A DNA stretch of 64,000 bases from Oligoflexia bacterium (GCA_903881565.1 CAIRTR010000232.1:31796-95795), one strand, 5' to 3'; counted from the stretch's first letter, positions 5,060 to 7,007 are shown. The notes: generated by a model not told the origin, from the sequence alone. Numbers and translations: made by a program.

Positions 5060-5226
5060 GAAAAGAGGTATAGCACAACCAAAAGGTGGTCCCCACCTTT
5101 TGGTTAAGATTTGCGTCAAATAGAGCCGAACAGCAACCTGTTCCACTCGCGATAAATGAGTGGAACTTGGCTCGATGTTTAGTTTATAGTTTTGCTGCTT
5201 ATGAGCCAAAAAGGGCGGCTGAAAAA

Positions 5227-5967
5227 ATGAAGAAACGCAAAATATTATTGAAGTTTGCTTTAATCCTTTGCGCTTTGACCCACGTTTCCATGCTGGAAAT
5301 TCATTTGAATGATATTTACGGAATCTTAGATCGCGAGGACTACCTGTTGATGGAGCAACAGAAACAGCCCGCACTCCATTCTGCTGCAGGAGAGAATTTG
5401 GCCTGGGAATCCTTTAACAGTTGGTCGTGCTTTCCGACAACGGAATTAGAAATTGATTGCCGTGATCAGGAGTCCGATCAAAGCTGGCACTCAATCAGTT
5501 CGGAAGAGCGTAATGGTAAAGGATACTATGCGGTCATTGACGTCAAACATGAAGGACATCAATATCGCTTTCAATCCCCTGGATGGATATTGGAAGAGAA
5601 TTGTCTGCAGCAAATTGAATCGACAATGAGACTGCTTGACGGACAAATTGGCTTTTGTATTTTTGCTGCCAAAATCCCCTCTGACGAAGAGTTGAACGGC
5701 ACTAACGACGAATCGGCTTCTTTGTGGGCGACTTATGGGATTAAGTCGCTGGCAGGACGCTTCAAACATCTAACGGAGCTCAAGCCTTGCTCTAGATGCA
5801 GGGTTGAGGTAGATTTTGGGCGTGGGGCTATAGCTCAGTTGGTAGAGCGTTGCATTCGCATTGCAAAGGCCGTCGGTTCGACCCCGATTAGCTCCACCAA
5901 ATCTAAGCCCGTTTCAAAGCTTTGGGCTGAATACGATCTTCTATTTCCCTGTCCACTATCTCAATAA
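5227..5967 (+). CDS. Hypothetical secreted protein; the open frame continues through the tRNA-Ala gene with no stop until 5967
   Basis: MKKRKILLKFALILCALTHVSM is signal-peptide-like and the body looks protein-like (GYYAVIDVKHEGHQYRFQSPGWILEEN). There is no in-frame stop before the tRNA at 5824, so the true 3-prime end is uncertain. Confidence 0.4.
   Translation: MKKRKILLKFALILCALTHVSMLEIHLNDIYGILDREDYLLMEQQKQPALHSAAGENLAWESFNSWSCFPTTELEIDCRDQESDQSWHSISSEERNGKGYYAVIDVKHEGHQYRFQSPGWILEENCLQQIESTMRLLDGQIGFCIFAAKIPSDEELNGTNDESASLWATYGIKSLAGRFKHLTELKPCSRCRVEVDFGRGAIAQLVERCIRIAKAVGSTPISSTKSKPVSKLWAEYDLLFPCPLSQ
5824..5896 (+). tRNA. tRNA-Ala (anticodon CGC)
   Basis: GGGGCTATAGCTCAGTTGGTAGAGCG...TTGCATTCGCATTGCAA...GGTTCGACCCCGATTAGCTCCA folds as a cloverleaf. 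The acceptor stem has the G3:U70 alanine identity pair, the anticodon loop is TT-CGC-AT, the T-loop is GGTTCGA, and an encoded CCA follows at 5897-5899. Confidence 0.85.
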
Positions 5968-6229
5968 ACGAAGGCCTTAATCGAATCTTCAAGAATTCAA
6001 GATCCTCATCACTAAATTGTTTTACTGTCCCAAGGCGCAGTCCATCTCGAAGTTTTTCTTTCATGAGAGTTTGGTATTCACCATGAGAAGTGAGTTTCGC
6101 CGCCTTCTTATATGCATCAAGAAGATCACCTTCAATCATAATCGAAATTCTAACTTTGACGTCCTTCGGGTCCGCCTCCGTCAAGGGAAGTACGTCAACC
6201 TTTCCAAACTTAACTTTCTTCTTTGCCAT
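5903..6229 (-). CDS. BrnA-like ribbon-helix-helix antitoxin-family protein
   Basis: MAKKKVKFGKVDVLPLTEADPKDVKVRISIMIEGDLLDAYKKAAKLTSHGEYQTLMKEKLRDGL resembles BrnA-type antitoxins (…RVSIRLDxDVLEyFK…GYQTRINxALR). It overlaps the upstream DUF4160 gene by about 20 nt. The ORF-track start at 6259 is the alternative. Confidence 0.5.
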   Translation of the reverse strand: MAKKKVKFGKVDVLPLTEADPKDVKVRISIMIEGDLLDAYKKAAKLTSHGEYQTLMKEKLRDGLRLGTVKQFSDEDLEFLKIRLRPSFIEIVDREIEDRIQPKALKRA

Positions 6230-6404
6230 GATACTCCTCCCACTTTGCCGCAAACTCACTGAATTCTGTGTCCCCCAGCATCTCCAAGCTCTTGAGACTA
6301 ACCTTCATTTTCTTTCCATGACCAGCAATGCGACAATGTGGCTCACCATGATCATCGCTGTTAATTTGAAATCGACAGCCTAACGCACGAACTACCGTAC
6401 CCAT
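6210..6404 (-). CDS. DUF4160-family small protein (possible toxin partner)
   Basis: MGTVVRALGCRFQINSDDHGEPHCRIAGHGKK matches the DUF4160 core (RFxxYxxDHxPPHxH). It is the first gene of a two-gene cassette next to tRNA-Ala. Confidence 0.55.
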   Translation of the reverse strand: MGTVVRALGCRFQINSDDHGEPHCRIAGHGKKMKVSLKSLEMLGDTEFSEFAAKWEEYHGKEES

Positions 6405-6412
6405 ATAGAACA

Positions 6413-6431
6413 TAATATATATACGGTATAT
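6413..6431. promoter_or_regulatory. AT-rich inverted repeat ATATATA-cgg-TATATAT directly upstream of the DUF4160/BrnA-like cassette; candidate operator
   Basis: Seen in sequence at 6413-6431, immediately 5-prime of the cassette start. TA cassettes are commonly autoregulated at promoter-overlapping palindromes. Confidence 0.3.
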
Positions 6432-6617
6432 ATGTCAACATTCACTTTATTGCTCAGATTCATTCTCGGTCGATAAGCAAGAACTACGCCGGCCTAGCAG
6501 GGGCTTTTGTGCGTCGATTGAGCCGATATCAGGTCTCTCTGCCCAGAAGTCGGACTATAAGTTCAGGCTGACCCCTCACCAAGGTTGTCTTGATCTGGCC
6601 AAACCATGAACTTCAAC

Positions 6618-7007
6618 TTATACACTAAATTTCTCAAACTCCTCAGCGCTCACTTTTGAAACCGAAAGCCTGGACTGCCGCACGAATTCCATCTTTACAA
6701 GCAGCGGGTCGGCTTTGATCTGCTTTAGAGTGATGGGTGCCTTAAGCTCCCGCAGGGGCGCAACTTTGAGCACCACGAAATTCTTATCCGCGGGGTCCTC
6801 CGCGGCCGGTGATTTGATTTCCATTACACCCACAACCTCTTTGTCAGCTCCAGAATGATAAAAAAGGACCTGATCCCCTACTGCCATGAGCTTCATATTG
6901 TTGCGCGCTTGGTAGTTTCGCACCCCATCCCAAAGTGTGGCGCGATCCCGTTTCAAATCTCCCCAGGAATATGTTCCTGGCTCACTCTTCATCAACCAAT
7001 AATTCAC
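6618..7007 (-). CDS. EVE (PUA-like) domain protein
   Basis: MNYWLMKSEPGTYSWGDL...LFYHSG...VVGVMEI is the classic EVE/DUF55 start and core. Confidence 0.8.
   Translation of the reverse strand: MNYWLMKSEPGTYSWGDLKRDRATLWDGVRNYQARNNMKLMAVGDQVLFYHSGADKEVVGVMEIKSPAAEDPADKNFVVLKVAPLRELKAPITLKQIKADPLLVKMEFVRQSRLSVSKVSAEEFEKFSV

Follow-up and report, generated by a model that had tools for sequence, protein, structure and literature searches.

The two overlapping minus-strand genes at 5903–6404 of a 64,000-nucleotide (nt) stretch of DNA from an Oligoflexia bacterium (GCA_903881565.1 CAIRTR010000232.1:31796-95795; this whole stretch is called the window) are probably a copy of a conserved toxin-first operon of the type II toxin-antitoxin (TA) type. 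In this operon a DUF4160 toxin is followed by a BrnA-like ribbon-helix-helix (RHH) antitoxin, which replaces the DUF2442 partner, and the toxin of the window copy appears to be disabled. The layout, a toxin-type open reading frame (ORF A) followed by an antitoxin-type one (ORF B) with a 20-nt overlap (6210–6229), was as an earlier note, made by a model from the sequence alone, had described it. The cassette has the following features:

6404–6210, minus strand: ORF A, toxin-type gene, 64 amino acids (aa), start MGTV; by alignment a degenerate DUF4160 (DhiT-type) toxin gene, with 64 aa instead of 80–81 aa
6413–6210, minus strand: longer call of ORF A, 67 aa, start MFYM
6229–5903, minus strand: ORF B, antitoxin-type gene, 108 aa, start MAKKK; by Pfam and relatives an intact BrnA-like (DUF4415/PF14384-related) antitoxin/repressor gene
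6234–6241, minus strand: Shine-Dalgarno (SD) sequence GGGAGGAG of ORF B, 4 nt 5′ of the ATG at 6229, within the toxin W-E-E codons
6255–6259, minus strand: junction of a 48-nt in-frame deletion in ORF A, placed by DNA alignment with the homologous locus L015
6330–6332, minus strand: codon 25 of ORF A, which reads CGC (Arg); in L015 it is CAC and encodes the second His of the PHxH signature
6409–6438, minus strand: σ70-type promoter TTGACA-N18-TATGTT, with the −35 box at 6438–6433 and the −10 box at 6414–6409
6417–6433, no strand: ATATATAC-G-GTATATAT, a perfect palindrome of 17 bp that lies within the promoter spacer and is presumed to be the operator of the RHH antitoxin

The start of ORF A is likely the MGTV codon at 6404, as in the homologues, which begin MGTV or MSTV. 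The MFYM start at 6413 was rejected on this ground and because 6411–6413 lie inside the −10 hexamer. A GTG start of ORF B at 6259 (118 aa) was rejected as well, as its homologues begin MAKKK. No second copy of the cassette was found within the 64-kb window.

The relatives of ORF A were proteins of 78–84 aa carrying PF13711, with scores of 43.4 bits for close relatives, and it is through these full-length relatives that the DUF4160 assignment of the first protein held. No BrnT match to ORF A was found in Pfam at E ≤ 1, and none either in the related loci. Locus L015, a 675-nt contig from another sample, was about 99% identical to the window across the cassette and the tRNA flank. Compared with L015, the window lacked residues 51–66 (RDAKRLIKIVEQYQDE), and in the undeleted L015 this segment was flanked by TGAG microhomology. 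A full-length relative gave a confident AlphaFold2 (AF2) model (pLDDT 92.2, pTM 0.81) with four β-strands and then helices at residues 50–62 and 64–75; in this model the window deletion corresponds to all of the predicted helix α1 and the start of α2. The 16-aa deletion was seen in no other member of the set of 42 aligned relatives. His25 was present in at least 90% of 42 aligned relatives and in L015, whereas the window has Arg (H25R); H23 was kept. When the 16 residues and H25 were restored in silico, the DUF4160 score rose from 15.3 to 48.1 bits, and on this basis window ORF A is the degenerate form of a true DUF4160 member. Between the window and L015, ORF B was 100% identical and the toxin ORF had 3 substitutions (Fisher p ~0.05). 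The deleted allele encoded an identical 67-aa product in at least three assemblies. With helix α1 and a key histidine lost, the window toxin is probably dead, and only the antitoxin/repressor would be intact.

Within the toxin subfamily, H23, W71, and H75 were invariant, and P22 and H25 near-invariant. One may speculate that these conserved residues form a catalytic or metal-binding histidine cluster; a search for fold relatives of the DUF4160 model gave no confident ones. The most conserved stretch of the subfamily was KWEEYHGK (window 6216–6245), which coincides, in another frame, with the SD and start codon of the antitoxin gene. This stretch is probably conserved for its dual coding and for translational coupling, and not for toxin function alone.

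In the ORF B protein a basic N-terminus precedes an RHH-like segment (about residues 25–64, KVRISIMIEGDLLDAYKKAAKLTSHGEYQTLMKEKLRDGL), which is followed by a C-terminal helix. Its BrnA-type assignment, also made in the earlier note, stood by way of the homologues: BrnA_antitoxin was matched by all 22 of the 22 close aligned relatives at E ≤ 0.01 (best 5.7e-8) and by 53 of 66 wider relatives at E ≤ 0.001 (best 7.6e-11). Among these 66 best wider relatives, 34 matched CopG_antitoxin and 3 matched RHH_1. In a search of 1.84 billion proteins, the ORF B profile matched 729 cluster representatives (E ≤ 1e-3). When aligned by hhalign with the canonical BrnA that partners BrnT in locus L006, the RHH-like segment gave 40 columns at 33% identity (E 0.0045), with the YQTL motif included. 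The sequence pattern, an alternating β-strand KVRISIMI, a helix, and a G-x-YQTL helix, was compatible with an RHH fold. A PDB sequence search with the profiles of both families returned chance-level matches only (E > 0.3). The same note had proposed profile hidden Markov model searches as a check on the two families; run in Pfam, they left the second protein with a BrnA_antitoxin match below threshold and with no DUF2442 match even at E ≤ 1. Judged by its sequence, ORF B is a divergent subfamily of BrnA_antitoxin and not a core member.

The promoter matched 10 of 12 consensus positions and was the sole promoter-like site in 5700–6700. Its −10 box ends 4 nt 5′ of the toxin ATG, and no SD was found before this ATG. 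The inverted repeat reported before the cassette was present and was longer than described, being the perfect 17-bp palindrome at 6417–6433. A TTGACA-N18-TAnnAT promoter with a palindrome directly after the −35 box was observed in 13 of 14 homologous loci. Changes in the inner arms were compensatory (C..G, GA..TC, T..A), resulting in AC-C-GT, ATGA-T-TCAT, and ATC-CAATA-GAT, and divergent clades had different dyads (ATGCCT...AGGCAT in L024 and L025). From its fixed position and the compensatory arms the palindrome is therefore more than chance, and these features support its role as a putative operator for a dimeric RHH repressor. The promoter position suggests that the toxin message is leaderless or near-leaderless, unlike that of the antitoxin with its strong embedded SD. 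A leaderless BrnT/BrnA-type operon has been listed in Synechocystis (PMC4963859).

The pairing was found repeatedly. An 81-aa DUF4160 protein followed by a BrnA-like protein of 83–137 aa, with an overlap of 8–23 nt, was observed in at least 12 unrelated contexts, which comprise Bdellovibrionota metagenome-assembled genomes (MAGs) and three IMG/VR viral contigs. Three loci from Bdellovibrionota MAGs (L001, L003, and L006) showed an 81-aa PF13711 protein and a 109-aa homologue of ORF B overlapping by 23 nt, each with different neighbours:

L001: GST and chalcone-synthase genes
L003: 23S_rRNA_IVP and NTP-transferase genes
L006: a canonical BrnT/BrnA pair

The same layout with a shorter antitoxin-type protein (88–89 aa, bona fide PF14384) or one of 137 aa was seen in L009, L012, L017, L024, L025, L033, and L035. 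The IMG/VR viral contigs were scanned with a smaller alignment of relatives, and the distant loci L036 and L037 there showed a DUF4160 gene and then a BrnA-like gene with a 17-nt overlap. The DUF4160 score of L036 was 52.9 bits, and L037 showed values of 42.4 bits for DUF4160 and 37.7 bits for BrnA_antitoxin, both over the cut-offs. Small, co-oriented, overlapping genes whose pairing is kept across unrelated contexts are what is generally expected of type II TA operons, and this was the arrangement found. The modules of L035, L036, and L037 lie on IMG/VR predicted viral contigs, and phages of Bdellovibrionota and of other hosts may carry the module; a tblastn search of toxin and antitoxin relatives against plasmid and phage collections gave no match.

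The most divergent member of the toxin subfamily, P0084 (L034), kept the AKWEEYHGK tail and had DUF2442 as partner. Within one toxin clade, two unrelated partner families are thus in use, which is direct evidence that antitoxins have been exchanged there. In L034 (2501–3498) a 151-aa DUF2442 gene overlaps the end of the DUF4160 gene by 14 nt, and next comes an ORF of 97 aa with no assigned family.

Some loci carried further genes next to the module. In L006 (4778–6003), and also in L007 and L008, the module stands tail-to-tail with a BrnT (94 aa)/BrnA (71 aa) pair with a tRNA-Ala(GGC) gene between them, and such a cluster contains two different toxins and related antitoxins. In L017 (3267–3491), from an Oligoflexia MAG, the stop codon of the antitoxin gene lies in a 4-nt overlap with an ORF of 74 aa; no other locus has this ORF, which may be a third operon gene in that lineage. 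In L012 (3411–3773) a gene with a Phage_ABA_S domain follows the module with a 4-nt overlap.

Damage to the toxin gene was not limited to the window. The following lesions were observed in related loci:

L015: 92-nt 5′ deletion, which removes the promoter, the palindrome, and the toxin start codon
window 6385–6395 and 6477–6487, no strand: direct repeat pair between which the L015 92-nt deletion occurred
L018: mid-gene toxin frameshift
L022: toxin frameshift at codon 3
L032: precise loss of toxin codons 1–34, with the promoter fused to M35
L010/L011: about 20 terminal toxin codons left
L026: both genes frameshifted
L019, L020, and L027–L029: antitoxin remnants without toxin

Six independent toxin lesions (the window, L015, L018, L022, L032, and L010/L011) were thus found beside intact antitoxins, and no intact toxin was seen beside a broken antitoxin among the loci examined, most of which were found through the antitoxin. 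Given the gene sizes, the probability that all six first lesions fall in the smaller gene is about 0.006. Every relic retains the 3′ end of the toxin gene, which holds the SD and the start codon of the antitoxin. Such one-sided decay is what a toxin-antitoxin relationship predicts. The 47-aa protein P0065 (L033) was considered as a truncated toxin and rejected, as its length resulted from the start choice of the gene caller; the 79-aa ORF is intact and no lesion was counted.

Known systems resemble the cassette in part. In Dickeya dadantii 3937, DhiT/DhiA (DUF4160/DUF2442) is toxin-first, the toxin is toxic in E. coli and in Dickeya, the second gene neutralises it, and the operon is autorepressed with the toxin as co-repressor (PMC8198452). 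A DUF4160/DUF2442 "persistence enhancing module" on a Thermus thermophilus plasmid stabilises plasmids, and deletion of its second ORF is not tolerated (PMC12724237). DhiT/DhiA and the Thermus module share with the window cassette a PF13711 toxin, a toxin-first bicistronic operon, overlapping genes, and presumed autoregulation. Their difference is the partner, which is DUF2442 in DhiT/DhiA and BrnA-like (PF14384-related) in the window, where the toxin is also shortened and mutated. According to a comparative study, DUF2442 follows most DUF4160 proteins, and the DUF4160 fold is without a confident structural homologue (PMC12065111). DUF4415/BrnA has been reported beside unidentified toxins as well as with DUF497/BrnT, there in toxin-antitoxin (T-AT) order (PMC4226512, PMC4963859). 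BrnT/BrnA (DUF497/COG2929 and DUF4415/COG3514) has in common with the window the antitoxin family, the YQTL RHH-like segment, and the toxin-first order, whereas its upstream gene is BrnT/DUF497 and that of the window is DUF4160-related. Unlike BrnA, ORF B has a basic N-terminus MAKKK..GK.D.LP and, as a long form, a C-terminal helix of about 40 aa. The effector domain of Menshen NsnC is DUF4160 too, and its authors infer an effector or toxin role (PMC12065111); there the domain lies inside a multi-domain defence protein, while in the window it is a stand-alone small protein of a two-gene module.

No report of a DUF4160/DUF4415 pair was found in the literature searched. The earlier note had proposed the combination as a possible new pairing in an unusual, toxin-first order. 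At family level it is indeed non-canonical and it recurs, but it is a partner-swapped form of DhiTA and BrnTA and no new kind of system. The order is no peculiarity, as it is normal for DhiTA (PMC8198452) and for T-AT pairs of the BrnTA type (PMC4963859).

In an intact module, the σ70 promoter (TTGACA-N18-TAnnAT) would drive both genes. Autorepression would result when an antitoxin dimer, perhaps joined by the toxin as co-repressor, binds the dyad operator of the promoter spacer. The toxin would be made from a leaderless or very short-leader message, and the antitoxin would be made efficiently from the strong SD GGGAGGAG in the last toxin codons, where the ORFs overlap, and would bind and neutralise the toxin. 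In the window, the 48-nt deletion and H25R would disable the toxin, so that the antitoxin/repressor would essentially be an orphan with a promoter of its own, next to the relic of a toxin gene.

Several points weigh against this reading. Neither window protein passed its Pfam cut-off: ORF A scored 15.3 bits against DUF4160 (PF13711; E 0.024, profile positions 1–42 of 65; cut-off 23), and ORF B scored 19.5 bits against BrnA_antitoxin (E 0.0013; gathering cut-off 26.1). Neither protein was matched in NCBIfam or PADLOC. The AF2 monomer of ORF B had a pLDDT of 57.9, with residues 21–44 drawn as helix, too poor a model for a fold search, and did not confirm the RHH fold; since RHH domains are obligate dimers, a poor monomer model is expected. 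The palindrome was reached by 58 of 1000 dinucleotide-preserving shuffles (p ~0.06) and is marginal when taken alone, because its sequence is (AT)n. The distance of 4 nt from the −10 box to the ATG is shorter than the typical distance from a −10 box to the transcription start site, which makes leaderless translation of the toxin uncertain. Most loci were found via the antitoxin, and the asymmetry of decay is thereby subject to ascertainment bias. In the literature, DUF4160 toxicity and its neutralisation are shown for DUF4160/DUF2442 pairs only. The window deletion is in-frame and its allele is kept in several assemblies, and residual or altered toxin function is possible.

The strongest competing explanation, to which we give a low probability, is that the pair is not a TA system and is a small regulatory or phage-associated module, in which a DUF4160 accessory protein without toxicity accompanies an RHH transcription factor. 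The lack of confident fold relatives for DUF4160, also reported elsewhere (PMC12065111), the empty PADLOC and NCBIfam scans, the three loci on predicted viral contigs, and the Phage_ABA_S gene adjoining L012 are in its favour. However, experiments in two distant bacteria have shown DUF4160 proteins to be toxic and the downstream gene to neutralise them, and the gene overlap, the promoter palindrome, the scattered contexts, the BrnT/BrnA neighbour in L006, and the confinement of lesions to the first gene all fit a TA pair better.

Slightly less probable is a fully functional window cassette, in which the 64-aa protein is a short or attenuated toxin, or a co-repressor that still binds the antitoxin. 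An in-frame deletion that spares the SD, the antitoxin start, and the promoter/operator, and an allele present in at least three assemblies, would agree with this. Against it, a whole predicted helix is gone from a compact 81-aa fold, a near-invariant His is replaced by Arg, no other member of the set of 42 aligned relatives shares the deletion, and the Pfam score is 15.3 bits where the restored protein gives 48.1. In addition, the sister strain L015 independently lost the promoter and start of its toxin gene, which fits dispensability of the toxin. It is very improbable that the deletion arose in sequencing or assembly and that the genome in truth encodes an intact toxin: the source is a metagenome-assembled scaffold, but the identical 67-aa product occurs on contigs of several assemblies and sources (ENA, NCBI, Logan), the 4-nt junction microhomology is far under assembler k-mer sizes, and H25R is a point change besides.

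The flanking genes of the cassette are housekeeping ones (RecO, EVE, and peroxiredoxin), and no GC break was found between cassette and neighbours. The nearest feature is a tRNA gene:

5824–5899, plus strand: tRNA-Ala (anticodon CGC), detected by ARAGORN, convergent with the cassette

The closeness of the cassette to the tRNA 3′ end, pointed out before, is real, as the ORF B stop codon lies 3 nt beyond the CCA end of the tRNA-Ala gene. As a trait of the module, tRNA-adjacent siting did not hold up. It was seen only in the window, in L032 (tRNA-Asp, convergent, 61 nt off), and in L006 (tRNA-Ala GGC, 83 nt downstream), each with a different tRNA. Nor was any repeat of the tRNA 3′ end or other att-like repeat found. 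Without such a repeat, a GC break, or a second copy in the window, tRNA-targeted insertion was rejected as a defining property, and tRNA adjacency is an occasional feature of the module.

ORF B and the tRNA-Ala gene converge at 5899–5905, 3 nt apart, and no intrinsic terminator was predicted between them. Transcription of the cassette would therefore continue into the tRNA gene in the antisense direction. A plus-strand ORF at 5086–5967 (246 aa, 5227–5967, in the call of the source's gene caller) has a signal-peptide-like N-terminus and no stop before the tRNA; its frame continues through the tRNA gene on the same strand and extends 65 nt into the antitoxin gene of the opposite strand, from the 3′ side. 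Either the C-terminus of this protein overlaps the tRNA, or its stop codon was lost when the cassette arrived.

For annotation, the reading of the cassette as a copy with a disabled toxin means that the window holds a toxin pseudogene or relic and an orphan antitoxin, and not a live TA pair. As the window toxin is damaged, a growth assay of the window ORF would probably be negative, and this would be a false negative for the family. For the family as a whole, we put at about even the chance that DUF4160 with a BrnA-like partner is a functional, undescribed, and widespread type II TA family (729 antitoxin representatives; phage-like contigs) that arose by antitoxin exchange with DhiT/DhiA, in which the leaderless toxin message and the embedded SD would set the toxin:antitoxin ratio, and in which toxin-null alleles would mark PHxH and helix α1 as essential. 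DhiT-type toxins would then have two unrelated antitoxin families, DUF2442 and BrnA-type RHH proteins, which is another instance of TA partner exchange. Any additional handle on DUF4160 is useful, and the lesions found in nature indicate which regions of the toxin are important, namely H25, helix α1, and the N-terminal His-rich half.

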